From positions 868,001 to 932,000 of the forward strand of contig NC_134036.1 of the NCBI RefSeq assembly GCF_964204645.1: a DNA stretch of 64,000 bases, given 5' to 3'. Source of the stretch: Tubulanus polymorphus (lineage: Eukaryota; Animalia; Nemertea). Positions 3,581 through 63,088 of the stretch are shown here, piece by piece. The notes beneath the pieces were generated by a model. The model saw only the letters and a program-made list of their open reading frames with translations. It did not search any database and was not told the origin of the DNA. Numbering within the stretch: position 1 is the first letter of the stretch; each line of letters starts with the position of its first letter. The position numbers and the translations under genes are program-made.

Positions 3581-4002
3581 GATGGGAAGGTTTCATCGGA
3601 GGGCTCAAAAACTAAATGACAACATTTAATTAACGAAAACAAAAGACTTAATTAAATCAGCCCGCTCGATTTTAGAATACTGTATCGTGGCGCCACTACG
3701 CAATAAACTCGAATTGAAATGAATCGAGGTCGAAGTGGAGCTATCATTCAAGATGGCGGCGCCCATGGATTTTTATTAAAAATTCGCCGATCGAGGTATT
3801 TATATGTTCACTGATATTGTCACTCATTTATTTCAGGTTCTGTATGGGGTAGGGAAAGGGGTGCGGCATATTTGCCCTCTTTAAAACTGGCTAGCAAAGA
3901 AGAAAAGACTCAAATAACGGGATGCTTCTCCAGCCCGGCAGGTGCCTCGCAGCAGCGCTTCATGATTTCAAGTTTTATTTTTGACAGGTTTTTGTTAACG
4001 AA
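3581..4002. promoter_or_regulatory. Probable bidirectional promoter/5' UTR region between the AAA ATPase and FBXL17
   Basis: Divergent start codons ~420 bp apart; YY1-type caagatggcggc at ~3749-3760; candidate 5' UTR intron ~3796-3987. Confidence 0.55.
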
Positions 4003-7000
4003 ATGGATTCCCCTCCAGCAAAACGTAGAAAACCTGACAACGCCGCAAACAATGAAGGGACGTCCTCAAATTCAAATGCCGCTGTTGCCATAGTGGCAGC
4101 TGAACAATCCGATGTGATATCGAATGTTTCTCCGAGTGACGATAAAAATTCTAATAATTGCGCGGAGTTGCTGCATGTTGAAAAAAACTCGATTCGTCAA
4201 CAATCGAAAAATGGGGAGTGCAGCCACAATTCTGTTCAACGCGACAACGATTCATCGAAAGAATCAGAATCGGAATCAACGACCAACAACAGCAGCAGCG
4301 AGGAGGATGAATCTACAAACTCAACGAGTTCCGATTCTGATTCGTCGGACGACAGCGATTCAAACTCATCGAGCGTTACCGACGGCGACGATGAATTCCC
4401 CGTTTTGACGAACCGTTACGAGATGACCGATCTCGACACGGCGATGTACGAACTGACGGAGAAATCGGTAACCGCCGAGAACCTGGCGCGATCGCTGACG
4501 CTCGGCCATCGCCAAAGCGGTAAAAATACTTTTCATCGAAAACGCCGCAGAAAACGACCGACGAAAATTACAAAGTCCGTTTCCGTAGAGACGGCTACGG
4601 ACAATGATATTAATATTAACGATTTACCGAGTTTTATATTAGTGAAGATTTTCGGTTTGTTGCCGTTGCACACGTTACTGTTACGAGTCGCTGTTATCTG
4701 TCGCGCGTGGTACGCATTGACGACCGATTCGTCGCTGTGGCGCCATCTGGATTTAAAAGGTCAGTTACGCGCTAGCGACGAGGTATTGTTGCGTTTAACG
4801 CGGTACAGTCAGAAGGTCGTTTCCGTGGATATCTCCAGCGTTCAATGGATCACGTCTAAAGGTCTGACGCGCATGTTACAACATTGTAAATATCTGGAAG
4901 TTCTCAAGATCAACTGGTAAATATCAAATCATGAAGAAATGTTTTAGCGACTTTTTTAGAATTATAAATCTGTAACCTGGAACCTGTTAATGTCCGTTCA
5001 AAATGAAGAAAAGATCTCCATGGTCCGGTTCCACAGTCGTGAGTTAGAGTTGACATTGAACACAGGACCCAGTTCCACAGACGTGAGTTAGAGTTAACTC
5101 TGAGTTAAAATCAATTCATTTTCAATTAGTTAACTCTTAGTCCAATCTTGACTCACAACTGTGGAACTGGATCCATGAAATTGTCCATGCAAACTGCAAA
5201 ACTGCATGGGTTGTTTGTAGTTCGGTTGCAATTAGGAATTTCTCAGTGAACTGCTGACTTGGCTTCATTGCTAAGACCTCATGAATCAACATCACAAATT
5301 CATTGTGTTTTATTTGTTTTCTGTAGGCCCAGTAGTATCATCGGTGATGAATCTTTGGGTAAAATCGGCGAACTATGTTCAAATCTACGACACCTGTCGC
5401 TGTCCAGCGCTTACATGCTGTCTGACGATAGCGTGAAAAAGGTAATTATCACAGAAACTTCACAGCGCTTTCAAAGGAGGGTGTATTCAATCACACCAGT
5501 CTTTTAGGGGGATTTATGGAGGTAGATATCTTTCCAAGGAGGAACTATGTAAATGTTATTTCATCAATTTGATTATGTCAAAGAGTGGAGATAGCCATAT
5601 GTTTTAAGAGTCTATGATGATAATAATGATGATGATATGATAATAATAATGTGTCTTATAGCACTAAACCCAGTGAAGCTGCTCAGAATGATAGTCGAAT
5701 GAAACACTCTAATCCGTGTATATTGTAGATTAATTAAAGAAGTCCCACAATTCGAATTTTAAATGATATGATTTATTGAACGAAACCACAACCTGATGAT
5801 GGCTGTTAGTCAACAATTTTTAATAAATCATTTCACATAAAATTCGAATTGTGCGACTTCTTCAATTAACAGCTGCTTTGCATTTTTCGGTATTATTACC
5901 CCAACCATTTAATACTCTAACATGTATCCCTGGGAATTGAAGACCACATTCATCAGTGATGTCATGTTGGTGATTTATAGAGGCTCCTGTCAATCTTATC
6001 TTGACGGATATCAGCCATTTTCAGTAAGGGTATTTATAAGGAATGATGTTTATACCGTATTTGTAGATCGCTCGTGGATGTCCGCAGTTGACACATCTTG
6101 CTATCGGTCACTGTCAACTTGTTTCCGACGAGGGAATCATAGCAATCGCTGAAAACTGTCCGAATCTTCAATTCCTACTTCTCGATAAATGCGTCAGGGT
6201 CAGTAACCGCGACGACGATCATTATTTGAATAAATTGCCACCGGCTTCGATTGTTGTAATTTTTGATTATTTTGTTTCTACAGATCAGTGAAGATAGTAT
6301 CGAATCTCTGGCGGCCGGTTGTTTAGATCTGACAACGTTGAGTTTGACGGGCTGTCGCAAAATGAGATCCGGACTTCATATCAAAAAGGTAAGACTGTGT
6401 GGAATACAGACGACACTCCATCGACCCCTGCCCTGTCCGTCGACCCCTGCCCTATCCATCGACCCCTGCCCTGTCCGTCTGCCCATGCCTTCTGAGTCTA
6501 CGAATACATTAGCTTGAGTTGTCTGGTGAAATTCTACCTCAGTTTCACTAGAGTCTTAAGCTTGAGAATCTGTTGAATTTGAATTGGTTTCCTCATTCAA
6601 AAAGCCTTTGGTAAAAGTTCTGAATTCTTGCTCACTGTACTATATCTCTCTGAGGGCCCTTTTAGGTAGCCAGGTTTTAACCAAGATCAGATCATCGCAT
6701 GTTTTGCGTGTTCCTGGTTCCGCAAGCATATTTTGTATCAACAGATTGTTCAATTTTTGGTTCAACTTTGTCGGAAACTGAAATTGGGGTTATATATAAT
6801 CCTCGCTGAGTAGAATCCACTAATTGTTAGTTTTGTTTTGTTAATAGTTGAAGAAGTTATGGTCGTTGGATATATCACAGATCAGCGATTTCGACGTGAT
6901 ATCTCTACGAGAAATCGTCAGTTCGTGCGAGAATCTGCAACGTTTAAACATGTCGCTAGTTCGAACCGTAACCGACGACGACATCAAATACATCGCGAAA

Positions 7001-30445: not shown

Positions 30446-33400
30446 GTAAAAGTAATAATAATAATAATAGTAGGCATTTATAGACCAAATTTATAGACGT
30501 AATCAGTGCGGTCTACGATAAAGATCTAGCTATGAAACACATTTAAACTACTAGTAAAAGACGTGTTCTTTAAAAAGAAAAGTTTCAAGATGAGATTTAA
30601 GATTTCGTCAATTTCATTACAGTTACGAAGCTTTCCCAAGAGCTTACTCTAAGTAAAAGACGGACACAGAGTCTACTGTGTGTTCAATAAAATCATCACT
30701 TACCTCAGTAAATACAGGATCTTGTTCTGCGTTTGTATAATCCCTGAACATTCCGTTTGCTTTCATGTAAGCTTCGATGTAAGCTATTTTATCTTCGTCG
30801 CGACCTGTAAAAAAAAAAAACACGCTTTAATAAAAGTTCCGGTAAGTACTTCCGCGTCGAAATAGCCGTTTCAATTCATTGAAAACGCATTGTTTTCACG
30901 CGGCTATCCGAACCACGTCGCATTTAGGAAAACTTTTGAGAAAGCACGCGAGCGCGAACTTTTGTTCTCGGACTCACCGGTTTGACGGAGATATTTGATG
31001 CTGACGTCGTCGACGGGGAAATACCCCATTGTTGCTCCGTATTCGGGACTCATGTTTGAAATCGTCGCTCGGTCGGCGATCGATAAAACGGCGACCCCGT
31101 CTCCGAAAAATTCGACGAACTTTCCGACGACGCCGACTTGGCGTAGGTGCTGAAAATATTCAAACGACGTGAATAACTTCACGAATGACAGTTTGGCTTC
31201 AATTTGACTCCTGATTGAATTATAAGATATCGTCAAAGGTTTGTTTTCAAGAGGTTCCTTGTGCCACTCATCACCAGTAAGAACAAGACACCAACAATTT
31301 AAATTCCCTGATGAAATTATAAGATATCCTCAGTGAGAGCTGTTTCTTATCAACAGGCTGTTTCTTGTGTCACTCATCATCAGCAGCAAGAACAACAAAA
31401 CACCAAAACATCCAAATTTAATGAATTTCCATGACTAGTCAGAATTCCCCGATTTTCCCTGCAGGGAAAAGTCGAAAAGTAAATCTGCAATTCCCTGATA
31501 ACGCAGATTTCCTCCTCTGGCACTGGCGAGTGACTCACCTTCGTAATAGTAAGTACGACGTCAGTAGATGTTGCTAATTGCGACAATTTACCGGTGATTT
31601 TATAACCGATAACTTTAGGTAGCACCATACTGATCGACTGACCCAACATAACGGCTTCGGCTTCTATACCACCGACACCTTCAACACACAAAAACAAATC
31701 ATTCTATTCTATTCTACATGACTGTAGTGAACTGATATAAATCTCAGTGTAGAGTTAACGAATAAAAACCAACAGGGTCCAGTTCCACAGTTCTGAGTTA
31801 AGATTTGACTCTGGGTTAAAACATTGAAAATGAACTAACTTTAACTCAGAGTTAACTGTAACTCACGACTGTGGAACTGGGTCCATTAGATTTGTAGTAA
31901 GTTTATTTCCTTCCTAACTTTTTTGTTCCTCTGAAGATGAGGTTTAGTTTTAACTTCAAAACTGTTTCTAGAAATCTACTGTGGCCTTTTATTTGTTAAT
32001 TCTACACGTTTGCAGTGGATCTTGGATTGATGAGAGACCAGTTAAAGACCGATAGCTCAGGGCCCAGTTTCACAAAAAAGTTGAACTCAAATTTCTGATG
32101 TAATCGCCATTGGTTACTTCATGTTTTCGATGAGGACAACAATTCAAACTTAACCGTTTTAGGCTTAAACTTATTTGTGAAACTGGGCCTAGAACATAAT
32201 TCTCTGGCGCGCCTATCAAAAAGAGAATATAACACCAAAGTACACTTACCCCAGCCGACAACTCCGAGACCGTTAATCATGGTAGTGTGCGAGTCGGTGC
32301 CGACCAGACTGTCCGGAAATAACAACCCTTCATCGCTCTCGAATACCACTCTACTCAGATACTCCAGATTCACCTGGTGGACGATACCGGAACCAGGCGG
32401 TACGATTAACATGTTCTTAAACGCGCTCGCGCCCCACTGTCAGAAAAAAAAAAAATAACATCCAATTAAAGATCTCCAGGACTAACTGCAGCCCATATTT
32501 GGAGTGAAGTAATAATCATGCTGCTGAACGAGATGATTTAAGGCTGGTCTTGGTTTGAGGAACCCCTCCAGACCATGACCAAATCGCAGAACTAAGATAG
32601 TTGTTTTTTCTGTGAGGGATTTTCAGAATAAAATAAAATAACATCCAATTAAATATCTCCAGGACCAACTGCAGCCCCATATTTGGAGTGAAGTAATAAT
32701 CATGCTGCTGAATGAGATGATTTAAGGCTGGTCTCGGTTTGAGGAACCCTTCCGGACCACGACCAAATCGCAGCAGAACTAAAAGACGGTTGTTTTTCTG
32801 TGAGGGATTTTCAGAATAAAATTACGAACCTTTAGAAATTTGAATCTCTCGATGTTTCTATCGAATTCCAGCTGTTGATTACGTTTTAACGATTCATTGC
32901 TGAAGAAAACCAAAACGCAAAAACAAAAATAACGACACAGCACACGGATTCTAAAATAATCTACGATTCAGAATCAACGCGAATCGAAACACGTTGTTCA
33001 TCGCGCGGTAGTTCACAGAGGAATACTGGTGGTGCCATCTAGCTGGCAAATATCTGTAAACAACTTTCTAACGCTACCCGTGAAGTAACGAGCAATTAAA
33101 ATGTCAATCAATCGGTTTGTAAATATTAAAATGTCAATCAATCGGTTTGTAAATATTAAAATGTCAATCAATCGGTTTGTAAATTTACAAACGTTTATTA
33201 GAAAATTATATTTACGAAAGACAGCAATGTTTTCACAAACTCAGGTTTAACGTTGTAACCTTGAATACTTCCTGTACTCTTCGTTATATCAATTCTATAA
33301 AATTCAACCCCAATTTTTCACAGATCAGAATTCGAACAGAAGTCTACCGAGCTACGTAAACCGTAAGGAAAATTAGACGAGAAGATACACAATATCCGTG

Positions 33401-38115: not shown

Positions 38116-38888
38116 TCAAACACTGCGTCGTGAATGCGCCATTATCTCCATAGTAACGCGAATAAATTTCATAATAATCGGTATAGTTATCGTCACGACG
38201 ATGTACACGTTGTACGGAACCGGGGGCGTTGTACCGAACGGCCACAAATAGACCCCGCGTCGAGTGGCGTCGCGGAGATGATGTAAACCGATCCCGAGCG
38301 ACGACATCCACGGCAGGTTCATCGCAGTACGAGAACTCAACACTAGCGCCACCACTGGTATCGATTTAGAACTATCGAACAGACGACATTTATCGCGAAA
38401 ACGAAAAAACGGGCGCAATAAACCTAACGCTAGCGCCACCACTGGTATCGACGTCGAACTATGAAACGGACGACCTTTCCTGTGGAAACGTCGCATTTTC
38501 TGAAAGACAAAACTGAAAATTAGAAAAACCATGAAAATCTGTTTAGAAGATTTGATGGTTCTTAAATTCGTACCCGCAGGTCGAAAGTTCCGGTCGTGAG
38601 AACGTGATCTAAATCAGGGATAACTCCGAACAATAACGCCAGCATCGCCTCGACGACAATACTCCGACCGTTTAATTCGAAATTCAAATTATTTGCGACG
38701 ACCGCCATCCACGCAAACGCGGATATCAGACCGTGAGTGACTTCATCGATCAACGCCGCTTCGTACGCGTCGCAATGAGACAACAATAACCGGTCGCCTA
38801 GCAACGCGACAATCAACGTAAAACCTACAAACACGAACGTACCAGGAGTTAAAGTCCGTTTCAATATTTCGGTAAAAATAACTCCCAT
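38116..38888 (-). CDS. TMEM267: Transmembrane protein 267, paralogue A (232 aa)
   Basis: Exons 38574-38888 and 38116-38499. LLGDRLL, DEVTHGLI, IPDLDH, RPFHSS, LPW, HHLRDATRRGVYLWPFGTTPPVPY follow the TMEM267 pattern. Confidence 0.85.
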
Positions 38889-39494
38889 GAGTGACTTGGA
38901 TATGGACCGATAAATACTTTTGGTCGATTAAAATGTATCTGGTAACGTGAAATATGACGCGAGGATGACCAGATTAATGTGCGAACTAACGGCGAGAATG
39001 AACTCAATGGTCAGTGAAGCCAGCCTGTGTAACAGACTGTGCGCTTATCGAACTAAAACATTTTCAACGGTTTTTATAGGTTCATGCGTAGCGACGTGTA
39101 ACAGGCTGTAACCCTGCTATAAATCATAGCGAAATCTTCCGTAATAGGTGTGTAATCCGTAGTGCAGATGTAAAAATCTGTGAGATCCGTTTTTTAATGA
39201 AATGTAACAATCTGCTCTACTGCTGTTACTGTCTGTGATTTGGCTCACTATAACTAAAAAAGTCTGTACGCCTACAATGCGGTGTGTTAATCTTGGAGAA
39301 CCCCTGGCTCCAACACCGTGTCGTTGGTCCATGAAATAATTCCGCGCGACGCAGCGAATTTAGGTCATTTTGTAGACTGCCATTTTGAAAAAAAAACCGA
39401 TTATTTCTGAGACACCGCTGCGCACTAGTCAGCGGAATCAGATGCAGCAACCAGATTTTCCCAACTCCTCAACAATCATTCAGAGATTTTAAGT

Positions 39495-40716
39495 TCAAAC
39501 AATGTCTACACCGCCTCCTCTATTACGTGAATACGCCATTATCTCCATAGTAACGCGAATAAATTTCATAATAATCGGTATAGTTATCGTCACGGCGATG
39601 TACGCGTTGTACGGAACCGGGGGCGTTGTACTGAACGGCCACAAATAGATCCCGCGTCGAGTGGCGTCGCGGAGATGATGTAAACCGATCCCGAGCGACG
39701 ACATCCACGGCAGATTCATCGCAGTACGAGATCTCAACGAGAAATATCTCCGCAATAAACAGAACGCCAGCGCCACCACTGGTATCAACGTCGAACTATG
39801 AAACGGACGACCTTTACCATGAAAACGTCTCATCTTCTGAAATATAAAAATTGAAATTTGAAAAAAAAATGATTATGAAAAGGTGCACCTACATCTACAC
39901 CCCAGTGCGGTGTATGAATCGGTGATGGACTTTGTTAGTACACCGCATAGCAGTGTATTGACGCTATAACTAATTGGTTTATATCTATAATGAAAGATGG
40001 CTGCACTTGTCAAACATAGTCAAATATTAGTAACTAACAATACACCCAGGGTGCGATCTAAGCACTTGTCCGATTGCCCGGGACAAGTATATTCTCATCA
40101 GGGCAAGTAGGTTATCATTATCACTTCTCCCCCGGGCTAGTGCAATTTTATGACACAAAGCTTTTTTCCCACTCGATACAACGGATGATAGTGCCACCAA
40201 TCGGACAGCCTGTGTGGGGCAAGTAGCTTTTGGAGCAAGTGGCTTTCATTCCTTAGATCGCACCCTGTACACCGCACTGCGGTGTAGATGCAATTATTCA
40301 ACACACAGGGGTTGACTTTTAAAAATTATTTCCAGCACTTTCCAGACCAGTAAAACTGTTAGAAGATTTGATGGTTTTCAAATTCGTACCTGCACGTCGA
40401 AAGTTCTGGTCGTGAGAACGTGATCTAAATCAGGGATAACTCCGAACAATAACGCCAGCATCGCCTCGACGACAATACTCCGACCATTAAATTTGAAATT
40501 CAAATTACTTGAGACGACCGCCATCCACGCGAACACGGATATCAGACCGTGAGTGACTTCATCGATCAACGCCGCTTCGTACGCGTCGGCATGAGACAAC
40601 AATAACCGGTCGCCTAGCAACGCGACGATCAACGTCAAACCTACAAACACGAACGTACCAGGAGTTAAAGTCTGTTTCAATATTTCGCTAACCGTTTCTC
40701 CGGTTGAAACGGACAT
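39495..40716 (-). CDS. TMEM267: Transmembrane protein 267, paralogue B (222 aa)
   Basis: Exons 40390-40716 and 39495-39836; same motifs; C-terminus GGGVDIV resembles the canonical TMEM267 tail. Confidence 0.88.
40047..40267. mobile_element. MITE with 16-bp TIR (cagggtgcgatctaag) and TACACC duplication, nested in a piggyBac-like MITE remnant (~39885-40340)
   Basis: Perfect TIRs; tacacc on both sides; the uninterrupted host element is at 59679-59937. Confidence 0.8.
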
Positions 40717-41445
40717 TGCTTTTAGAATAACTAAACTTATTATTCTATAAAAATAATGAAATAAGTTTAACCGTCATTTAAGACATAAGTGTGTTCGATT
40801 TTAACTGAACAGTTGTCTTAAAAACGCAGAATTATAATTTTAGTGGTTCGAATTTATTTATTTCATGGACGCGGCCATATTTGATTTATTATCCAGTAGA
40901 GGGCGGCACGAGATGGTGAAATTCAATTCCAATTGCCTATATTGAGTTGGCGGGCCGGACGTAGTGGCGCGCGGTACTGCAGGTACACTGTCGCAGTGCA
41001 CGGCTCCATGCCAACCGTGCGTAAACAAATGAAATGTCAATCAATGGAATCAATGAAAGTGACCGCAATTCACGACATCAGGTAAGAATATTCTAATACA
41101 CTGTTAGTCCCTGTACGGGCGTAGTGCTAGGACTGGTCCCTGGGTTGAATTTAACACCAGAATTAATAACGGCACATCTGAAATGAATTAACTAATTCTC
41201 CACTATGGAACCGGGTCCGGTACTGTGTGAAACGTGCTCATTGTAACAAAAAGGCAGTGGTGGCTCTGCAATCTTAACACTGCGTATTGAAATACATTTC
41301 ATATTGAGTTCCTAGTTATAACAGGAATATCCGTTTTTCCTTTTTAAAAAATCATAACAAATCACGTTAATTATTTCGCAAAATTTTTTAGATATACATT
41401 TTCGACGACGCATATATCATGATAAAATACCGATAAATCGACAAG

Positions 41446-47210
<5,765 letters not shown>

Positions 47211-47572
47211 CGACATGAAAATTTCAAATCAGTGTCTGAGAACGAGTGAGGGCCCCGGTGATGATGAGAAGACGACTTGATCTCGAAGAAGCCGCGATCC
47301 ACAACACAATAAAAACGAATTTTCAATCTTTTCTTCAAATTTACATCAATTATATCTGTTAAGTTAAATATTCATTCAGATTATGAAATAAACAGTCTAT
47401 TTTTCTTATTGAAAACAAGTTTTTTTAAAGATATTTCACCATTAATGCACTACATGAAATATCAAATCAGTTCCATCAATTCGATGATGTCATAGATTCT
47501 ATATTATCACAATTACGTCATAGTGTGATGGAAACGTCGTAAGTTACAATAGTTACTTTCACAATAGTGATT

Positions 47573-50034
47573 TCAATCAGTTAATTCTAGACCAGCTAAT
47601 GTAGCTAGTTGTTCATCGATTTCATCAGTTTTTCTCTTTTCTTCAGCTGTTCGTTTTCGTAGAGCGACGCGTTCTGCTTCATGCCTCATTTTCTGTTCAT
47701 TTTCTTCACGACGTTGACGCTTGATTTCGGCTTGTTTCAAAATACTTTTCATCGCGTTCATGTGTTCTCGGTCGGTTATCACGTAACTGTGTTTTATCAA
47801 ACCGGCCAGGCTTGAAAAGTCTTTTCGAACTTTTTTCCGCAATTCAGGTGTCGTCACAACCGGTATTACAGAAAAGCAGGCCTCCTCGATTATTGTGACG
47901 AATAGATTTTCACTAGTTAACTTGCTACACATACTGTCCCATGTCTCTTCATCTAGATACAATATTCTGTAGCAAGACCTCTCTACGGCCATACCACGTG
48001 ATCTTTGTATACCGCCGACCGCGGGGAATGAATCGGGGGTGCAGATTTTAACACCTTTCAGTTCCCTTTCTAATCTGTCTTTGTAATCGAGTGCCCGGTC
48101 GCGGGCCCGATCGTCGCATAGTAAACAGAAGTGATAGGTTTCGTAATGTAGCGCTTCGGGAAGTTCAGCTGCGGCTCGGAAATCTTCTGCAAAGAGTAAA
48201 AGAAGGAGGCATGGTTTTTTTTTACATACAAGAGGTTTGATCTCCCATCAAAGAAACTCGTGTCAGGCTGGGTAAATTTTCCAAATCTTTTTAACAAAGG
48301 AACAAGATTTATCCTTATGCCTTAAATAAAATCTGTATTTTTTATCTTAGAATAGGAATTTCGTTTGATTTTCTGATTTGGTGTCCCTTACAAACCCAAC
48401 AGTCCTGTCGGGAGCGAAACAGGGGGTTTGATTTTTAACATGTATGTCTTACCTAGATCTCTTATCGGTTGCGGCTCAGGCTGAAATTATAAAAGGATAT
48501 TTAGATCAACTCAAAAAAGAGATTTCCTCTTATTTCACGGTATCGTGGACAGCTCAGCGCCATCGCAGCAAATGAAATATTTTCGAGCAAAAAAATTTTT
48601 ACACAACATATTCTATTCTAGCTAAGATGCAGTTTGTTTAAAGTGAGTTACCTGCACCGGTTCGGTGGAAACTACTAGATTATTCTGTTTAGCGAACACC
48701 GGGTCGACTGAAACAGAATATTGAAAATGTTGAATTTCAACGGAATTTTTAACAACAAAAAAACAAGTTTTTATCACCACTTTTTACCTTGACCTCTGAT
48801 ATAGTCAGCAATTGTTTTTTCACCAATTTTTTCCAAATTGATGATTAGTTTTTGGTAATTCTTGTTTTTCGGATCTATCACCATCTGCCTCTCCAGAATA
48901 TCAAATAAATCGAACATATTTTTACACTCATCTCGATCTCGAGCGTACAAATTATCGTGGAAAGAATTTTTCAAACGAACAAATCCATCATCATTCAGAT
49001 TCATGTGAATATAATCTCTTAATTCACTACAATGAAATAAAATACAATTTTAGTGTCCATCATATTCAGAATGTTTCTGAAAATTGTATACATGCCAAAA
49101 TAGCTCAGCCATTTCTATACTTACGGATAGGAAATTCCCTGCTCAGTAGCTCCGGTCTAAAAATCATAATGAATTAATGTTACTGTTATGACAAGAATGT
49201 GTGAAATGTCATATTTTAGTTAATTGAGCTTGTTCCCTGATCCTGCAGCCACTGTGAGAAAAAATGATCCAGCCATGTGTCCAGTCACTGAGACAAACTA
49301 ATTGGGCTGGCTTGTGCCATGTGTCCAGTCAATGAGACAAACTAATTGGGCTGGCTTGTGCCCTGTGTCCAGTCACTGAGACAAACTAATTGAGGAGGGT
49401 TGTGCCCTGTGCCCAGTCACTGAGACAAACTAATTGAGCTAGCTTGTGCCCTATGTCCAGTCACTGAGACAAACTAATTGAGGTGGCTTGTGCCCTATGT
49501 CCAGTCACTGAGACAAACTAATTGAGCTGGCTTGTGCCCTGTGTCCAGTGACTGAGACAAACAAATTGAGCTAGCTTGTGCCCTATGTCCACCCACTGAG
49601 ACAAACTAATTGAGCTGGCTTGTGCCCTGTCTGCGTCCAGTCACTGAGACAAACTAATTGCCCTGACCAGTTACGATTTATTTAGCTAATAGTTCGTTCA
49701 GTAAACATTCTATGAGACAATTATTGAGCCGCCTCAAGTCGCGGCTACATCACAAACTACACCTATAACTTTTACCCACCGGTGGGTCAGCCGGTCTCTA
49801 CTTACTTAGTAGATAGAGTAGCCCGTCTACATAACGGCGTAGGCGTCACCGTCCGAGACAAACTGAACAGAGATCTGGTTGAACAGACTTGTCACAAAGT
49901 GAACATATTTCGATAGAAATCATTAATATATATACAATATTGCATGACCTTACCTCATTCAGTGTTTGTGTATCCCGATTATTTAAGGTATATCCAGATG
50001 GAATAACTCTTTGCGCTGCCGGATGATCGGCCAT
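47573..50034 (-). CDS. DED + TRIF/TICAM-like TIR + coiled-coil protein, copy 1 (349 aa)
   Basis: Exons 49954-50034, 49125-49156, 48788-49026, 48652-48707, 48453-48480, 47573-48186 (1050 nt, open). DED-like ELRDYIHMNLNDDGFVRLK...FDLFDILERQMVIDP...LIINLEKIG; TIR-like YHFCLL...RALDYKDRLE...KICTPDSF...AVERSCYRILYL...SVIPV...LAGLI. Confidence 0.8.
49275..49660. repeat. 43 bp satellite, ~9 copies, in intron 1 of DED-TIR copy 1
   Basis: Unit gtgtccagtcactgagacaaactaattgagctggcttgtgccct. Confidence 0.95.
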
Positions 50035-50044
50035 CTTGTATAGT

Positions 50045-50055
50045 GGGGATTTCCC
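50045..50055. promoter_or_regulatory. NF-kappaB consensus site upstream of DED-TIR copy 1 (equivalents at 53014-53023 and 57372-57381)
   Basis: GGGGATTTCCC matches GGGRNWYYCC; positionally conserved in the three paralogues. Confidence 0.5.
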
Positions 50056-50352
50056 TGCTAATGTTTATTGGAATCATGGATAGATGGCGTCTGCATCAAA
50101 AAGGCAACTCTACGAGTCTAGTTGTGAAGCAGAAACCCGAACGCAGGGTGATTTTAATATAGAACCGGTTTTTATCAATTATCTGTTGAATTAAAAACAT
50201 TTTCAGTTTGCAAAGTGAACAAGTATTATTCGCAAAATACGCAAATGATTTTTAATTGAACAGAATTTTTATGTTTTATCCAAAATACTGGAATTTACAT
50301 ACGACACTCCTTTATTCGCATTCAGTATTCTCTTCCATGTATACAGTTTCAA

Positions 50353-50570
50353 GCTGCGGGTTTTTCTATGAAAAACTGGAGAAATATTTCGAGATGGAAT
50401 TCGTTGATATTCTCAGTTTCATCTCAGTTTTGGATAATCTCAATTTATAACATGAGAATCTCAAAATCAGTGTCTGAGGACGAGTGAGGGACTACACCCC
50501 GGTGATAAAGCAGAGACGACTCGATCTCGAAGAAGCCACGACCCACAACACAATAAACACAAATTTTCAT
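50353..50570 (+). pseudogene. Relic duplicate of the last exon and 3' UTR of the ARM-TIR-SAM gene
   Basis: Nearly identical to 47112-47330, with a 1-nt deletion and an altered acceptor. Confidence 0.85.
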
Positions 50571-51006
50571 TTTTTCATTAATTATCTAAATATTATATAA
50601 ATTATTACATTTATTATATAAATGCAGATTATAAAATAGACATTATTTTTTTCTAATGGAAAACAACCTCATTTTAGAAAATCAGTTTCGTAAAAATCTC
50701 CGCCGGATAAGAATAAGTACAAGTATCATCTGGCCACCTTCGGTTAGCTGAGTTAGTCGACTATAGTCAAACTAAACGAAACCGAATGTCCATTAGTCGG
50801 AACTATATTCCGGAAATAGTTCGAAAATCAAACGCATTCGGTTATCAGTTCGATAAACCGAATTTGGCCATTTGTGTTCAATCAAAAGCACCACGTGAAA
50901 TGTCAAATCAGTTCCATCAATTCGATGATGTCATAGGGTCCATATTATCACAATTTCGTCATATTGTGATGGAAAGGTTATCATCGTTACTTTCACAATA
51001 GTGATT

Positions 51007-53001
51007 TCAATCAGTTAATTGTAGACCAGCTAATGTAGCTAGTTGTTCATCGATTTCATCAGTTTTTCTCTTTTCTTCAGCTGCTCGTTTTCGTAGAGCG
51101 ACACGTTTTGCTTCATTCCTTTCTTTCTGTTCATCTTCTTCGCGACGTCGACCCTCGATTTCGGCCTGTTTCAAAAAGGATTTCATGGCGTTCATGTGTT
51201 CTCTGTCGGTAATCACGTAAATCGGTTTTATCAAACCGGCCAGTGTTGATAAGGCTTTTTCAGCTTTTTCGCGGACTTCGGGAGTCGTCACAACCGGTAT
51301 TACAGAGCAGGTTCCTTCTACCTTCATTGTGACGAAAAGGTGTTCCGTAGTTAACTTGCTACACATACTGTCCCATGTCTCTTCATCTAGATACAATATT
51401 CTGTAGCAGGATTTCTTTACAGCCATGGCAAGTGATCCTTGTATACCGCCGACCGCGGGGAATGAATCGGGGGTGCAGATTTTAACATCTTCCAGTTCCC
51501 TTTCAAACATGTCTTTGTAATCGAGTGCCCGGTCGCGGGCCCGGTCGTCGTACAGTAAACAGAATTGATAGGTTTCGTAATGTAGCGCTTCGGGAAGTTC
51601 CGCTGCGGCTCGGAAATCTTCTGCGAATAAGTAAAAGAAGGGGATTCGTCGATTTTTACATAAAAGGGGTTTGATCTCCCATCAAAGAAACTCATGTCAG
51701 GCTGGGTAAATTTTCCAAATCTTTTGAACAAGGGGAGAAGATTTATCTTTATGTCTCAAATAAGATCAGTATTTTTATACATGATGTCCTACCTTGATCC
51801 CTTATTGCTTCAGGCTGAAATTTTAAAAGGAGATTTAGATAAACGCTGAGATATCTTGATATCTCATAGAATATCGTGGACAGAAGCACCATCTCAGCAA
51901 ACACAATATTTTGGAGCGCAAAGATAATATTGCACATTCATATATAGCTCTTTTCTTCTGTGGTTTGTTTTAGGTAAGTTACCTGCACCCGATTCGGTGA
52001 CTACTAAATTATTCTGATTAGCGAGTTAAAGATCAAAAACATCTCGATATTTGATGGAAAAGAAACTTTTCAAATGGAAAGAAATAAATGTATAAGTTAC
52101 CGCTATGTCTCCCTGTACTGATTCGGTGGAAACTACTAGATTAGTCTGTTTAGCGAACGCTGGATCGACTGAAACAGAATATAGAAAATGTTGAATTTCA
52201 CCGGAATTTTTAACAACAGAAAAACAAGTTTTTAACATCGTTATTTACCTGAACCTCTGATATGGTCAGCAATTGCTTTTTCATTTATTTCATCTAAACT
52301 CTTTATCAATTTTTCGTAGTTTTTGTTTTTGGGCTCTATATACCCTTTTGATACAAGCTGATCCATCAAAGAAGGTACATCTTTAAATCTTTCTCGCTGA
52401 TCAGCTCTTAAGCACTTTTTTTTCAAATCAACTAATCCATCCTCCGCCAGATGCTGACTAATATGATCTCTCACTTTGCTGATACAAAATCAAATAAAAT
52501 TTTAGTTTCTAATATTTTCTCAGAAATGTTCTTCGAAAATTATACATATGAACATAATAAGTGCAGCATTTCACTGCCCTAATACTTACCGATAGAGAGT
52601 TTCATTCTGAAAATGATATTAAAAGCATTGTTAATGTAATGATTCCAATACAACACTTAATTTTTAGCTAATTGAGAAACAAACTGACCAGCCACTGCTG
52701 GCTTTGTCCCCAGACCTGACTAAGGCTAAAAAATATATTGATACCTTCTTTCTCCGCACTATTGAGCCTTAAAGATGACCTGACCGGCCGCCTATCTACC
52801 CTGTACATTACTTTTTTTTCAAAATCGTGATCGATTTTACCATAAACAGACCCGGCAGCTCTAGAAATGAACTGTTTACAAATTCTATTCACTGAATTAA
52901 AGAAGCAGTTGTAATTTTACCTCATCCATGTTTGTTTGTGTATCTTGGTTGTTTAAGGCATATCCAGGTGGGATAACTCTTTGCAATGTTTGAGTCGCCA
53001 T
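51007..53001 (-). CDS. DED + TRIF/TICAM-like TIR + coiled-coil protein, copy 2 (343 aa)
   Basis: Exons 52921-53001, 52590-52606, 52249-52478, 52101-52168, 51793-51814, 51007-51620 (1032 nt, open); same intron phases as copy 1. Confidence 0.8.
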
Positions 53002-53138
53002 CTTTAATCCAACGGGTTTTCCCATATACTATTATTACCGGGTAGTGTGTCTTAAAGGGGAACATGGATAGATGGCGCTTTATCAATAAAATTAACTTCA
53101 ATTACATCCAACATCATCAATTTTCCATTTGTTTGTTT

Positions 53139-53229
53139 TTTTTTCTATGAAAAACTGGAAAAATCGTTCGAGATGGAATTCGTTGATATTCTCAGTTTCT
53201 TCTCAGATTCAGATAATCTCAATTTATAG
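53139..53229 (+). pseudogene. Second relic of the ARM-TIR-SAM last exon
   Basis: ttctatgaaaaactggaaaaatcgttcgagatggaattcgttgatattctcagtttc is identical to 47124-47180; no acceptor AG. Confidence 0.85.
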
Positions 53230-53813
53230 CAAGAATTTATAACCCACAAAACATTAAAAACAAAGTTTCATTTTTTCATTGACCATTTATCAATCGAATA
53301 CATATTGTATATATTATTTAAGGTGACACATAAATAGAGTTGTTTATTTTATATAACAAGAATTTATAACCCACAACACAATTAAAACAAAGTTTCATTT
53401 TTTCATTGACCTTTTATCAATCTAATACATATTGCATATATTATTAAAGGTTATACATAAATAAAGAGTCGTTTATTTTATCTAAAAGCGAGGAAGTCTT
53501 TTTTCAAAATTTATCTCCAATGCGTACAAAGTTTCTGCGGACGAGTTTAAGTACGATCAGTTCTCCTCGATTATAATGCACCGAGTGGAATATCAAATCC
53601 AAGCATTATCAATTCGATGATGTCATGGTTATAAATATTATCTTTTAATGCCCTCGACCCGCTAAGCGCCACGCAGGACATTATAAGCGGGTTCGATGAC
53701 CAGAGAAGAACCTTCGACCAAGAAACTCGCCACTAGGGTTTGAAATATGAATATCATCACGACGATCTCATAGGGTGATACAGCTAAGACCTCGTTTCGT
53801 TCTGAACCACGAT

Positions 53814-56800
53814 TTAATCGGTTAACTCTAAACTAGCTATTCCTTCATCGATTTCATCAGTCTGCGAGTTTTCTGCAGCTGCTTGTTCTGGAAGAGCGAC
53901 GTCTTCTAATTCATTCATTTCTTCCTGTAGCCGTTCATCTTCTTCACGAATTTGGCACTGTTTTTTGGCAACCTCAAAAATGGATTTCATGGCGTTCCAG
54001 TGCTCTCTGTCGGTTATCTCGTAACTGGTTTTTATCAAAGCGCCCAGACTTGGATATTCTTTTCGAACTTCTCTCCGCAATTCGGGTGTCGTCACAACCG
54101 GTATTACAGAGAAGAGCTCCTCAATGATCATTTTGACGTATAGGATTTCCGTAGTTAACTTGCTATGCATACTGTTCCATGTCTTGTCATCGAGGTATAA
54201 TATCCTGTAGTAGGATTTCTGTACACACATATCTCGTGGTCCCTGGATACAGCCGACCTCGGGAAATGAATCAGGGGTGCAAATTTTAACATCGCCAAGT
54301 TTACTTTTTAATTCCTTTATATAATCGGCCACCCGGTCAGTGCGATCTTCACGGCCATCGACCTCCTCATCATCGTGAAGTAAACAAAAGTGAAAGGTTT
54401 TGTTGTTGGACTGAAATTTGAAAAAAAAAAAAAAACGTTAGAGATCAAAAACATCTCGATATTTGATGGAAAAGAAACTTTTCAAATGGAAAGAAATAAA
54501 TGTATAAGTTACCGCTAGGTGTACCGGTACCGATTCAGCGGAAACCACTCGATTATTCCCATTAACGAACGCTGGGTCGACTGTCGGGTTGAACGCTGGG
54601 TTGACTGTCGGGCTGAACGCTGGGTCGACTGAAATAGAATTTTGAAAATGTTGAATTTCATCCGAGTTCAACAAAAAAACACGTTTTAATCATAATTTTT
54701 ACCTTGACCGCTGATATAGTCAGCAATTGCTTTTCGATCAATTTCATTCAAATTGATGATTAGTTCTTGGTAATCATTTTTTTCGGGATCTATCACCATC
54801 TGCCTCTCCAGAATGTCCAATAATTCGAACACATTTTTACACTCATCTCGATCTCGAGCGTCCAAATTATCGTGGAAACTATTTTTCAAACGAACAAATC
54901 CATCATCATTTAGCTTCCTGTGAATATAATCTCTTAATTCACTACAATGAAATGAAATACAATTTTAGTGTCAATTATTTTCGCAGAAATGTTCCTGAAA
55001 ATTGTATACATGCTAAAATAGCTCAGCTATTTCTATACTTACCGATAGGAAATTCCCTGCTCTGTAGCTCCGGTCTAAAAATCATAATGAATTAATGTTA
55101 ATATTATAATACAAATGTATGAAATTGAGCTGACTTGTCCCCTGATCCTGCAGCCACTGAGAGACAAAATGATCCAGCCATCTGCTGGCTGAAATTTGTG
55201 CCATGTGTCCAGTGACGGAGACATACTAATTTAGCTGGCTTGTGTCCTGTGTCCAATCAGTGACTGAGACAGGCTAATTGAGGTGGCTTGTGCCCTGCGC
55301 CCAGTCACTGGAGACAAACTAATTGAGGTGGATGTGCCCCTGTGTCCAGTGACTGAGACAAACTAATTGAAGTGGCTTGTGCGCTGTGCCCAGTCACTGA
55401 GACAAACTAATTGAGGTGGCTTGTCCCCTGTGTCCAGTCACTGAGACAAACTAATTGAACTGGCTTTTGCCCTGTGCCCAGTCACTGAGACAAACTAATT
55501 GAGCTGGCTTGTGCTCTATGTACAGTCACCGAGACAAACTAATTGAGATGGCTTGTGCCCTGCGTCCAGTCACTGAGGCAAAATAATTGAGGTGGCTTGT
55601 GCCCTGTGTCCAGTGACTGAGACAAACTAATTGGGCTGGCTTGTGCCCCTGTGTACAGTCACCGAGACAAACTAATTGAGATGGCTTGTGCCCTGCGTCC
55701 AGTCACTGAGGCAAAATAATTGAGGTGGCTTGTGCCCTGTGCCCAGCCACTGAGACAAACTAATTGAGGTGGCTTGTGCCCTGTGCCCAGTCACTGAGAC
55801 AAACTAATTGATGTGGCTTGTGCCCTGCGTCCAGTCAATGAGGCAAACTAATTGAGCTGGCTTGTGCCCTGTGTCCAGTGACTGTGACAAACTAATTGAG
55901 GTGGCTTGTGCCCTGTGTCCAGTGACTGAGACAAACTAATTGGGCTGGCTTGTGCCCCTGTGTACAGTCACCGAGACAAACTAATTGAGATGGCTTGTGC
56001 CCTGCGTCCAGTCACTGAGGCAAAATAATTGAGGTGGCTTGTGCCCTGTGCCCAGCCACTGAGACAAACTAATTGATGTGGCTTGTGCCCTGCGTCCAGT
56101 CAATGAGGCAAACTAATTGAGCTGGCTTGTGCCCTGTGTCCAGTGACTGTGACAAACTAATTGAACTGGCTTGTGCCCTGCGTCCAGTCACTGAGGCAAA
56201 ATAATTGAGGTGGCTTGTGCCCTGTGTCCAGTCACTGAGACAAACTAATTGGGCTGGCTTGTGCCCCTGTGTACAGTGACTGTGACAAACTAATTGAACT
56301 GGCTTGTGCCCTGCGTCCAGTCACTGAGGCAAAATAATTGAGGTGGCTTGTGCCCTGTGTCCAGTCACTGAGACAAACTAATTGAGCTGGCTTGTGCCCT
56401 GTGTCCAGTGACTGAGACAAACTAATTGAGCTGGCTTGTGCTCTATGTACAGTCACCGAGACAAACTACTGTCTGTCACACATGCTCTTCGTGCGACGTT
56501 TTGGTTCGTAATTTCGTTAATAATCGGTTGATCTGTAAATATTATGCATCAATTTGTTCAGTAAGGAATTTGCATTCAGAAATAAATCATGAACTGGCAG
56601 AAATTTGTTTGTGTTTTCTTCTATCAGCGATAGTTTACCTAGCATACGCTCGCGTAATGCTGAAAAACGGCTTTTATGGCCCGTCACGTGGCGCCACCTA
56701 CTGTATTTTGATATGCTAATGAGCAGGTGATGACGTCACTGTAACGTTTCCGAGCGTCCGCGGAGCGGATTTTTCAGCATTACGCGAGCGTATGCTGAGT

Positions 56801-57358
56801 AAACTATCGCTCATAAATGAAAACAAAAACAACTTTAGTGAAAATTGTTGTTTATTTCTGAATGCAAATTCCTCACTGAACAAATTGATGCATAATAAAG
56901 GTAGATAAACCGATTATTAACGAAATTACGGACCAAAACGTCGCACGGAGAGTAGGTGTGACAGACAGTAATTGATGTGGCTTGTGCCCTGCGTCCAGTC
57001 AATGAGGCAAACTAATTGAGCTGGCTTGTGCCCTGTGTCCAGTGACTGTGACAAACTAATTGAGGTGGCTAGTGCCCTGTGCCCAGCCACTGAGACAAAC
57101 TAATTGAGCTGGCTTGTGCCCTGTGCCCAGTGACTGAGACAAACCAATTGAGGTGGCTTGTGCCCTCTGTGCCCAGCCACTGAGACCAACTAATTGAGGT
57201 GGCTTGTGCCCTGTGTCCAGTCACTGTGATATTGAGCTGGTTCACGGCCAGCAGCCACCGTGAACTAGAAATATGAGCTAAGTTGCTTTGAGAAATCTGC
57301 CTTGTGTAATTTAAATTACTTCAGTTTCGTTTATATCTTCGTTAATCTGTGCGGCCAT
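53814..57358 (-). CDS. DED + TRIF/TICAM-like TIR + coiled-coil protein, copy 3 (340 aa)
   Basis: Exons 57320-57358, 55043-55074, 54703-54941, 54513-54628, 53814-54410 (1023 nt, open). The first exon is inferred from promoter-motif conservation and phase. Confidence 0.75.
55204..57228. repeat. 43-44 bp satellite array in intron 1 of DED-TIR copy 3, interrupted by a MITE
   Basis: Same unit as 49275-49660, roughly 35 copies. Confidence 0.96.
56469..56968. mobile_element. 500 bp foldback MITE with long TIRs and TA target-site duplication (Tc1/mariner-type)
   Basis: ctgtctgtcacac...gtgtgacagacag inserted at the TA of the satellite unit acaaacTAattg; arms of ~200 bp. Confidence 0.9.
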
Positions 57359-60930: not shown

Positions 60931-63088
60931 TCATTGGAACTCAGTATTATCGGATGAGAAGAGCTCTTTATGTAACGCCGGGAACTCAATAGATGGCGCC
61001 GTTTTTTTGAAGTTGTTCAATATCGCGATGTGTTTACCGCTCAACTCGCGTAGCAACGGTAACTTCTGCAACACGACGCCTAGCAACGATTCATTGTCCG
61101 GATGATTTTTGCCGATTTCCATTTTGAACGCCGACAGTATACGATCCTGGATCTTCTGAATTTGAGTGGCGTCCTTCACGCCTGGACGGTCTGTCGAATA
61201 AATCAAAATAACAATCACTGTGGATACATAATGACTGGGGGGCGATCGAGGAAATTTTTTGGGAGGCCCAGGTCCTGACGAAAGGAAGAGATATTTCGCA
61301 ATTAAAGCATCTATGTCAAAGAGCACTAGCGAGGCCTACACTTGATGTTATCATATTTGAAGAAATAAATCCTAATTGTGACAAGTGTCAAATCTACAAA
61401 ATTTTGACACAAACTCTTGTTTTGATGAATAGGGCAACCCCCCACGAGGAAGGCGGATACTGGACGCCGATGACTCAGGATATTTACCGGGACTGAGCAG
61501 TACAATCGCGCTGAGCAAAGCAAGTTCCATATCAGTGAGTTTATAACTGATCAACTCCGTCGCCAGTTCAAATATAGACTGTTTGAAGTTTTCTTCCGAT
61601 TCATCTGAAACCGATAAAAGAATCGATTTTAATCCCCCTATGACATCATCATACCGATACGAATCCCCCTATGACATCATCATACCGATGATACTGATGT
61701 GAAAAGATGGCTGACTAAACGAAACCCCTTATGACATCATCAAATTCATGCCGGATATTAAAACTACATGAAAAGATGGCTGCCTTAATAAATCCCATTA
61801 TGACATCATTAAACGCATGTGGTGATTGATATGAACATTTCTTGAAAAGATGGCCGCCTCCACAAATCCCCTCATGACATCATCATATACTTGAACTTAC
61901 CTAGACCAGTAAATACGCTGAGTGGTACGAACGTCGTTCCAAAGATGGCGCTATCGCTCGCTATATCGTACGCTCTCGATAATCGCAATAAAGCGATTTC
62001 GAAACTACCTGAAAAAACAACAGACCGGAAAAATACGTTTAGAATACCGGCGTTACTACTGCTGCCCCCTGTAGGGTATACACGCGAACTAACCGGCTTT
62101 CAGTAACATTATTTGGTCGTCTTGCAGGAAGCCCATGAATCCCGGAATCATTTTAGCGAATTCGATAATTTGTTGAACGGTGATCGTAATTTTTTCCGCG
62201 ATCTCTTTCCACATTTCTTCTCGAGACTGAAACGAATCGCGATCAAATGAAAATTAAATCGAAAAAGATGAAATCATAAAAAGACGAAATACGCATCATG
62301 CAATTCTGAAAGGTTCGGAAAAAAATCAGAAAATTACCAGCGATTTCAGAGTTTCGTAAACGTCGATAGGTGGCGCTTGCGAGCGTAATCGGTCGATCTG
62401 ATCCGTGCTCAATAGACATGTTCTAACGTGAGCCTCGCCGATAGCTTTCACTAATAAACCTAAAAACACAATGAATCGGTCAAAAATCATCAATCTTTCA
62501 GTTTAAAACTTTCCATTCAAGTTCCGTAAAACATCCCCCTATGACATCATCGAATTGATACGGTGATATAGAAAAGATGGCTGCCCTCCATAAATTCCCC
62601 AATGAAATAAAACTGATGTGACAATCAAACCTTCAAATAGAGATGTCTACTCTCACAAATTTCCCTATGACATCATCAAATTGATGTGATGATATAGACC
62701 ATTGCAGAAAAGATGTCTGCCTTCTATGAATCCCCCTATGACATCATCAACTTGATGTGTCAAAGTAGACACTCTCAGCAAAGATGTCTTCTTTCAGAAA
62801 TCCTCCCATGACATCATCAAACTGTAAATGAATCTATTGATGATGTCATAGGGGGATCTCTGGACCGGTTTTTTTTTTTACGTACCGAGGTCGAGTTCTT
62901 CTGGAATTTTGATAATCGGTTGAACGGGTGAAACATTGTACATATTCGGGTCCATCGTCTGCCCGGCCGTGTGCTGCCCGTGACCAGTAGGGGGCGCCGC
63001 TAGCACCGGCGAGTATTGTTGCATTTCGTTCGGCGAACTGTAAACGTAACCATTCGCTGCGTAACCGTATTGAGGAGGAGGGAGGTAG
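60931..63088 (-). CDS. HR3: Nuclear receptor HR3/ROR (NR1F), hinge and ligand-binding-domain exons (5' part lies outside the window)
   Basis: Exons 62886-63088, 62338-62459, 62094-62226, 61901-62008, 61488-61604, 60931-61190. [47 protein letters not shown], and AF-2 [10 protein letters not shown]. Confidence 0.9.

Follow-up and report, generated by a model that had tools for sequence, protein, structure and literature searches.

Three tandem genes on the minus strand of Tubulanus polymorphus, a palaeonemertean ribbon worm, encode proteins in which a divergent death effector domain (DED) is followed by a domain that is very probably a TIR domain. They lie at 47573-50034 (gene 1), 51007-53001 (gene 2) and 53814-57358 (gene 3) of the window, i.e. 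the whole 64,000-nucleotide stretch that was analysed (NCBI RefSeq contig NC_134036.1, positions 868,001 to 932,000), to which all coordinates refer. The three genes are real, spliced and expressed. Their products may be lineage-restricted cytosolic scaffolds that act as adaptors much like MyD88, but with a DED where MyD88 has its death domain, and that feed a private DED relay, a reading to which we give about an even chance.

Gene models were built from splice sites, independently of RefSeq. All introns had GT-AG ends, no internal stop was present, and the open frames of 349, 343 and 340 residues (genes 1, 2 and 3) were letter-for-letter identical in all three cases to RefSeq XP_074661453.1, XP_074661410.1 and XP_074661417.1. 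The three intact spliced frames reported in a preliminary description of this locus, made from the sequence alone, were thus recovered exactly. That description had placed the DED in the N-terminal exon; it is encoded by exon 3, not by the first exon. RefSeq names the products uncharacterised proteins LOC141914075, LOC141914046 and LOC141914052 (genes 1, 2 and 3), and as none of them has a Pfam domain on record, both domains were missed by annotation. Sequencing evidence consisted of contigs from three runs of one study (X1, X2 and X3), none of them catalogued as RNA, placed on gene 1 only (47400-50300). The exons, with the evidence for each, are as follows.

49954..50034, minus strand: gene 1 (LOC141914075, 349 residues) exon 1, residues 1-27, low-confidence N-terminus (splice model; identical RefSeq model; zero cover in run X2)
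49125..49156, minus strand: gene 1 exon 2 (splice model; joint 49026>49125)
48788..49026, minus strand: gene 1 exon 3, divergent DED, residues 38-117, six predicted helices, gene 3-like (Pfam, AlphaFold, Foldseek, VIA, site comparison)
48652..48707, minus strand: gene 1 exon 4, linker (splice model; run X2 joints)
48453..48480, minus strand: gene 1 exon 5, linker (splice model; run X2 joints)
47573..48186, minus strand: gene 1 exon 6, very probable TIR domain (about residues 160-298), charged helix and conserved TDEIDE and LELTD end, gene 2-like (ESM Atlas, AlphaFold, motif scan, site comparison)
52921..53001, minus strand: gene 2 (LOC141914046, 343 residues) exon 1 (splice model; RefSeq identity)
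52590..52606, minus strand: gene 2 exon 2 (splice model; RefSeq identity)
52249..52478, minus strand: gene 2 exon 3, whose DED diverges most, with 47% identity to that of gene 1 and 42% to that of gene 3 (Pfam; sequence comparison)
52101..52168, minus strand: gene 2 exon 4 (splice model; contig match)
51793..51814, minus strand: gene 2 exon 5 (inserted letters of the depth-403 contig equal the gene 2 exon 4-5 join)
51007..51620, minus strand: gene 2 exon 6, very probable TIR domain and charged helix (splice model; motif scan)
57320..57358, minus strand: gene 3 (LOC141914052; isoform X1 of 340 residues, isoform X2 of 332) exon 1 (splice model; RefSeq identity)
55043..55074, minus strand: gene 3 exon 2 (splice model; paralogous joint, depth 170)
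54703..54941, minus strand: gene 3 exon 3, divergent DED (Pfam; hhalign)
54513..54628, minus strand: gene 3 exon 4, which contains a 24-nt tandem repeat and from which 8 residues are missing in isoform X2 (splice model; repeat analysis)
53814..54410, minus strand: gene 3 exon 5, very probable TIR domain and acidic helix (splice model; motif scan)

Gene 2 also contains an alternative in-frame exon with AG/GT ends at 51983-52013 (minus strand) that would yield a 346-residue form; the contig seen uses exon 5.

Run X1 covered exons and introns alike and contained zero splice joints. In run X2 the depth over exons was in the hundreds, and the joints 48186>48453, 48480>48652, 48707>48788 and 49026>49125 correspond to all four gene 1 introns between exon 2 and exon 6, each with CT..AC ends and a depth of 352. 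The gene 1 pieces (28 + 28 + 56 + 239 + 20) form one 371-nt contig, and we infer that run X2 is RNA. Exon 1 of gene 1 had no cover in run X2, and the DED exon had none in run X3. Since a contig of depth 403 holds the join between exons 4 and 5 of gene 2, and some loose ends carry sequence of gene 2 exon 3 and of gene 3 exon 4, all three genes look transcribed. The preliminary description had called for a transcript check of exon joining. Run X2 contigs carry the predicted joints, but the reach into the last exon (28 letters for the gene 1 contig and 30 for the gene 2 contig) fell under the 31-letter bar for bridging. The gene 3 contig has 282 letters beyond the DED exon, the first 30 of which were compared. 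From these short contigs of one study, joining of the DED exon and the last exon in one mRNA is well supported. A further joint, 47702>50094, was dismissed for its depth of 4.5 and its non-canonical ends.

The Pfam DED family (PF01335) was the best match for genes 1 and 3 (E 0.0015 and 0.00093) and the fourth for gene 2 (E 0.062). A three-sequence profile of the domain returned three matches among 1.84 billion representatives: gene 2 and two proteins designated P0005 and P0006. These were the only two non-self matches, and both carry a Pfam DED (E 1.4e-6 and 3.9e-11). AlphaFold placed six helices in gene 1 (residues 37-47, 50-59, 66-71, 75-84, 96-104 and 108-118), with a predicted local distance difference test score (pLDDT) of 70-86 over residues 41-120, and structure comparison of the DED was based on this model only. 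The first seven Foldseek ranks were all DEDs, with the FADD DED at a probability of 1.00 and a template modelling (TM) score of 0.76 by target. In VIA, ranks 1-10 were all DEDs or tandem DEDs (Z 9.5-11.3, root mean square deviation (rmsd) 1.6-3.1), the top match having a Z of 11.3 and an rmsd of 2.7 over 85 aligned residues; the best of the other death folds were a PYD (Z 9.0), a death domain (8.7) and a CARD (8.1). Two sets of scores speak against this assignment: the Pfam scores of 19.2, 14.0 and 19.8 bits (genes 1, 2 and 3) are below the gathering cut-off of 35.9, and the Foldseek E-values were 0.12 or worse. From these data we conclude that the N-terminal domain, as modelled, is a divergent DED, the predicted fold being backed by reciprocal profile matches.

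The absence of an RxDL motif from this DED, also reported previously, was confirmed. The corresponding residues are EKTI, EKAI and RKAI in genes 1, 2 and 3, and the acidic residue of the charge triad is Gly, compared with ELI..RKDL in P0006, so that the triad is lost. The hydrophobic FL patch of helix 2 is replaced by NS, KK and NS, respectively, opposite FM of P0006. Because both the FL patch and the charge triad are lost, formation of canonical DED chains is doubtful, which is a further point against our interpretation. Papers are cited here by PMC number. DED chains are mediated by the FL motif, and RxDL is absent from both DEDs of caspase-10 and is not needed for caspase recruitment (PMC4915230). 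Judged from sequence, loss of FL, which the preliminary description had not mentioned, speaks more strongly than loss of RxDL against binding of canonical caspase-8. The closest relative of this DED is the final repeat of LOC141906421 (hhalign 95%, E 3e-8, 40% identity). This uncharacterised T. polymorphus protein (P0005/P0007; 660 and 707 residues) is encoded on another contig and ends in two or three divergent DED-like repeats, which likewise lack FL and RxDL. Among proteins of 159-2000 residues the DED profile gave four matches, all from T. polymorphus; about 7990 candidates were scored, so absence elsewhere is weak evidence. Neither FADD nor caspase-8 was among the sequence relatives of the DED in the profile searches.

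The positive evidence for a C-terminal TIR domain came from a single source, the ESM Atlas. With the whole protein, the feature search placed death domain plus TIR and MyD88 clusters first (0.93, 0.92 and 0.91), with more than 170 shared features (181). With the domain alone, TICAM2 (0.88) and TIRAP (0.87) followed two unnamed clusters (0.91 and 0.90), and all ten family matches belonged to one clan. In the structure search with the whole protein, rows 1-3 were TRIF clusters (TM by query 0.46-0.49), and five of the seven others (rows 4, 7, 8, 9 and 10) aligned on a TIR, with TM by row of up to 0.61.

Profile comparison made use of a second TIR in the window. A multi-exon gene on the plus strand (41446-47210), tail to tail with gene 1, has Arm repeat (E 1.3e-5) and TIR_2 (E 3.8e-9) matches and an intact CxxE motif; its SAM-like end was recognised by eye only, with no Pfam SAM match. 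This ARM-TIR neighbour possibly encodes an NAD-cleaving TIR and a candidate partner of the three proteins, and its TIR exon has close relatives in 30 metagenome loci. Eleven of these 30 loci and the TIR of the neighbour itself were used in the comparison.

Several results weigh against the TIR assignment. All Atlas structure scores were under the bar for naming (TM by query at most 0.49), the two Atlas searches count as one source, and the two best feature matches of the domain alone were unnamed clusters. Pfam TIR and TIR_2 matched none of the three proteins at E up to 10, although such a match is also missing in some true TRIFs (PMC9440496), and a sequence-profile search of the PDB returned no TIR among its matches. 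In the comparison with the neighbour-type TIR family, 13 of 60 shuffles reached the observed score, which is not above chance; a global-mode score above all 60 shuffles was rejected because the alignment was in the wrong register. The AlphaFold models of the domain were of low confidence and uninformative on its fold (pLDDT below 50 in the full protein, mean 38.7 for the domain alone), and Foldseek and VIA searches with the domain model gave no meaningful match (best Z 3.5), which speaks neither for nor against a TIR. Of the structural result anticipated in the preliminary description, DEDs as top matches for the N-terminal domain were thus obtained, but for the C-terminal one TRIF clusters came first only in the Atlas structure search, with scores under its bar, our own models being below a pLDDT of 50. 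The most likely explanation for the Atlas matches is that the domain is a TIR, and we hold this with considerable confidence.

The putative BB loop reads DSFP[AE]VG in the three genes, with F and G in register with EDFxxPG, the BB-loop motif of the TRIF group (PMC7075850), and Val in place of Pro. As this Pro is buried in the TRIF filament interface (PMC11745336), its replacement is another point against the proposed adaptor role. However, the BB-loop apex of TRAM is Cys rather than Pro, and TRAM filaments form nonetheless (PMC11745336). A motif scan found neither CxxE nor WxxxE in any of the three proteins, in agreement with the missing CxxE glutamate noted earlier. All three have Leu at +3 from the alphaC Cys/His (Leu235 in gene 1), and this is likely the catalytic position. 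The TIR domain is therefore predicted to be catalytically dead and of the scaffold type, as had been proposed, though an invariant Glu (238, 232 and 230) lies at +6, one turn further along the helix. FCLL is the sequence of the first strand, compared with ISY in the TIR of the ARM-TIR neighbour. A search with a TIR profile found only these three genes among proteins of 108-356 residues and none among those of 357-2000 residues, with about 7990 candidates scored in each case, so that absence is weak evidence, and a metagenome scan with the full alignment gave 0 matches in 421. Relatives outside T. polymorphus were not found in these searches of limited reach.

Residues 285-345 of gene 1 were modelled as one long helix. 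In genes 1 and 2, charged residues make up 56-60% of this tail and hydrophobic ones 11-13%, and an excess of i+3/i+4 ion pairs was detected (p 0.022 and 0.003); the gene 3 tail has neither an ion-pair excess nor a heptad excess. The charged coiled coil described previously was rejected, as there was no heptad excess (p 0.11-0.27) and the hydrophobic content was 11-18% across the three genes. A single charged helix describes the tail better than a coiled coil. At its end TDEIDE and L[EQ]LTD are invariant in all three proteins, even with a tail no more than 52-54% identical to that of gene 3. A motif scan detected no RHIM, TRAF site (including TRAF6), strict pLxIS or myristoylation glycine in any of the three.

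The locus arose by duplication. At the start of every duplication unit stands a copied last exon from the ARM-TIR neighbour on the opposite strand (original at 47121-47211). The copies and a tract shared by genes 1 and 3 are as follows.

50361..50451, plus strand: copy of the ARM-TIR last exon, marking a duplication unit (repeat family D10, 96%)
53140..53230, plus strand: second copy of the ARM-TIR last exon, marking the next duplication unit (repeat family D10, 93%)
48694..49660, no strand assigned: gene 1 tract spanning intron 3, the DED exon, exon 2 and the minisatellite intron, which shares 84.6% identity with 54615-55589 in gene 3; a presumed gene-conversion tract (alignment, site comparison)

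Gene 1 is a mosaic, with a gene 3-like DED exon and a gene 2-like TIR exon. At informative sites, exons 2-3 of gene 1 agree with gene 3 at 88 and with gene 2 at 13, compared with 32 and 125, respectively, from exon 6 on (Fisher p 2e-27, sites not independent), and the dS of the gene 1-gene 3 pair rises from 0.067 for the DED to 0.45 for the TIR part. The shared tract aligns over 999 bases and takes in introns as well as a 44-bp minisatellite missing in gene 2. The simplest reading would be that gene conversion carried the DED cassette from one to the other of genes 1 and 3, in either direction. The minisatellite occupies intron 1 of genes 1 and 3 (49272-49660, 55196-56468 and 56969-57226; 8.8, 28.8 and 5.8 copies) and borders the presumed tract. 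A stretch of 147 bases that is 89% identical between genes 2 and 3 (52025-52171 and 54437-54583; exon 4 and the next intron; repeat family D12) may be a second conversion tract.

The ratio of nonsynonymous to synonymous substitution rates (dN/dS) was 0.58-0.64 for whole genes (p 0.0002-0.006) and 0.44-0.59 for the TIR part in all three pairs (p 0.006-0.023), indicating purifying selection on the latter. For the DED exon it was not significantly below 1 (p 0.17-0.43), which does not favour our interpretation. Positive selection on the DED was considered for genes 1 and 3 (dN/dS 1.78) and was not significant (p 0.43).

Other features of the window were ordinary neighbours: an F-box protein at 3985-4917, aconitase at 30907-31329 and a nuclear-receptor ligand-binding domain at 61375-61668. 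Two tandem copies of a small membrane-protein gene, which we take to be TMEM267-like, occupy 38116-40773 on the minus strand and had no Pfam match at E 0.001. A short intronic element at 48357-48438, where the summed depth in run X1 climbs to 18,000 and loose ends are numerous, is a high-copy dispersed repeat; a similar stretch was seen by eye near 45030-45110.

Among known systems the proteins most resemble MyD88, clusters of which were among the top Atlas feature matches: they have about 300-350 residues, are cytosolic, and combine an N-terminal death fold and a linker with a C-terminal domain that is likely a scaffold TIR. Unlike MyD88, they have a DED and not a death domain (MyD88 death domains reached VIA Z 7.2 and 6.7, compared with 11.3 for a DED), lack the box 2 motif RDxxPG, carry a long charged C-terminal helix and exist as three mosaic paralogues. 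The preliminary description had called the TIR TRIF/TICAM-like. The C-terminal blocks that it quoted are present, and TICAM1 (TRIF) and TICAM2 (TRAM) provide the nearest named Atlas clusters, with scores below the bars; the F..G spacing of the BB loop and a long helix after the domain are further likenesses. In contrast, TRIF-NTD (Pfam), RHIM, the TRAF6 site, strict pLxIS and the myristoylation glycine are absent, and the BB apex is Val. With the BB-loop Pro, RHIM, TRIF-NTD and pLxIS missing, these proteins are by such sequence features not TRIF members, and orthology of the TIR to the TICAMs seems unlikely to us. TICAMs are reported only in chordates in the available parts of PMC9440496, PMC7075850 and PMC9334734. 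Like FADD (DED plus death domain) and PEA-15 (single DED), the proteins have a single N-terminal DED (rmsd 2.2-2.7 Å over 84-88 residues); unlike them, they likely have a TIR as second module and lack the FL patch and RxDL.

The preliminary description left the novelty of a DED-TIR protein to be checked. Swapping of death folds onto invertebrate immune sensors and adaptors by exon shuffling is well described: amphioxus CARD-TIR and DED-NACHT proteins, and lophotrochozoan and echinoderm RIG-I-like receptors (RLRs) with DEDs (PMC2575513, PMC8998645, PMC8662601). The pairing itself was not met in the full-text literature searched, most subscription papers lying outside it, so that an earlier listing is possible. 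In the available part of PMC2575513 (Additional Table 4), the domains paired with TIR across 13 genomes include Death and CARD, not DED, and DED partners NACHT; DED is likewise not in the partner list in the part of PMC8998645 at hand. The pairing was also not met in the accessible parts of PMC8662601, PMC5094078, PMC11874512, PMC11797021, PMC8998645, PMC6321704, PMC2858798, PMC9440496 and PMC9334734.

In the mechanism that we propose, an upstream TIR (of a Toll-like receptor (TLR) or another TIR protein) would nucleate head-to-tail assembly of the adaptor TIR through the BB loop (DSFP[AE]VG, with its Val apex); parallel two-stranded filaments are shared by the four adaptors of TLRs (MyD88, MAL, TRIF, TRAM; PMC11745336). 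This assembly would cluster the DEDs on their 40-residue linkers, and the clustered DEDs would recruit a DED partner, a divergent DED protein of the species itself such as LOC141906421 being likelier than canonical caspase-8. Recruitment could then lead to an output through a caspase or NF-kB, bypassing IRAK and RIPK1, and exchange of DED exons between paralogues would bring TIR inputs and DED outputs into new combinations. TLRs, MyD88, FADD and a DED caspase are present in a nemertean (PMC9835746), so the phylum possesses both inputs and outputs. A private DED relay is favoured because the nearest DED kin is a multi-DED protein of the same species with the same motif losses. The same proteins could instead act as decoys or brakes that join and cap TIR assemblies or DED chains, as do short MyD88, SARM1 on TRIF, cFLIP-S and PEA-15. 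The loss of a canonical interface feature in both domains (the BB-loop Pro; the FL patch and RxDL) would fit such a role, as would the lack of RHIM, TRAF and strict pLxIS motifs, and PEA-15 and viral FLIPs were among the top VIA matches (ranks 1, 2, 4, 7 and 10), tied with FADD and caspase-8. However, TRAM makes filaments with Cys at its BB-loop apex (PMC11745336), caspase-10 lacks RxDL in both DEDs (PMC4915230), and the motif losses shared with the species' own multi-DED protein fit a private binding code. One domain would also suffice for a decoy, yet both are kept in all three paralogues, and we consider this role unlikely.

That the DED binds the FADD or caspase-8 of this species, coupling TIR assemblies to extrinsic apoptosis as the preliminary description had suggested, appears quite unlikely: the FL patch is absent, the closest DED belongs to a different protein of the species, and neither FADD nor caspase-8 is among the sequence relatives of the DED, although both have DEDs that ranked at the top in the structure searches, a nemertean possesses FADD and a DED caspase (PMC9835746), and the same role was proposed for the DED grafted onto lophotrochozoan RLRs (PMC8662601, PMC8998645). 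All sequence-profile tests for a TIR were blank, as would be expected were the C-terminal domain a non-TIR alpha/beta domain. The invariant Glu (238, 232 and 230), which a non-significant alignment with a 2-residue gap puts opposite the CxxE Glu of the neighbour, could suggest an active NAD-cleaving TIR. Either alternative is very unlikely in our judgement, given Leu at +3 after the alphaC Cys/His in all three proteins, a first strand of FCLL rather than ISY, and the grouping of the domain with scaffold adaptors in the ESM Atlas. The tail might provide an output of its own, with L[EQ]LT on the charged helix as a pLxIS-like docking site for an IRF-type factor and DEID as a caspase cut that removes it. 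TDEIDE and L[EQ]LTD are indeed invariant despite the divergence of the gene 3 tail, but there is no strict pLxIS match, three related copies cannot show motif conservation, and four-letter matches arise by chance; this output is barely credible. It also seems improbable that a protostome adaptor of the TICAM lineage couples TIR filaments directly to both a DED filament and the activation of caspases, bypassing any death-domain relay, its paralogues swapping DED cassettes by gene conversion and so rewiring receptor-to-death output.

To our knowledge, vertebrate TIR assemblies reach caspase-8-type DEDs only via relays of other domains. The significance of the three genes is tempered by their occurrence in one species only and by the fact that shuffling of domains in this general manner is familiar. 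Nevertheless, a natural, expressed DED-TIR protein would fill a missing cell among death-fold/TIR pairings, beside the described death domain-TIR and CARD-TIR proteins, and would offer a small construct for asking whether TIR assembly nucleates DEDs directly. A TICAM-like TIR in a nemertean, if true, would be relevant to the idea that adaptors of this type originated in chordates, and the mosaic gene 1 shows re-pairing of domains in progress.

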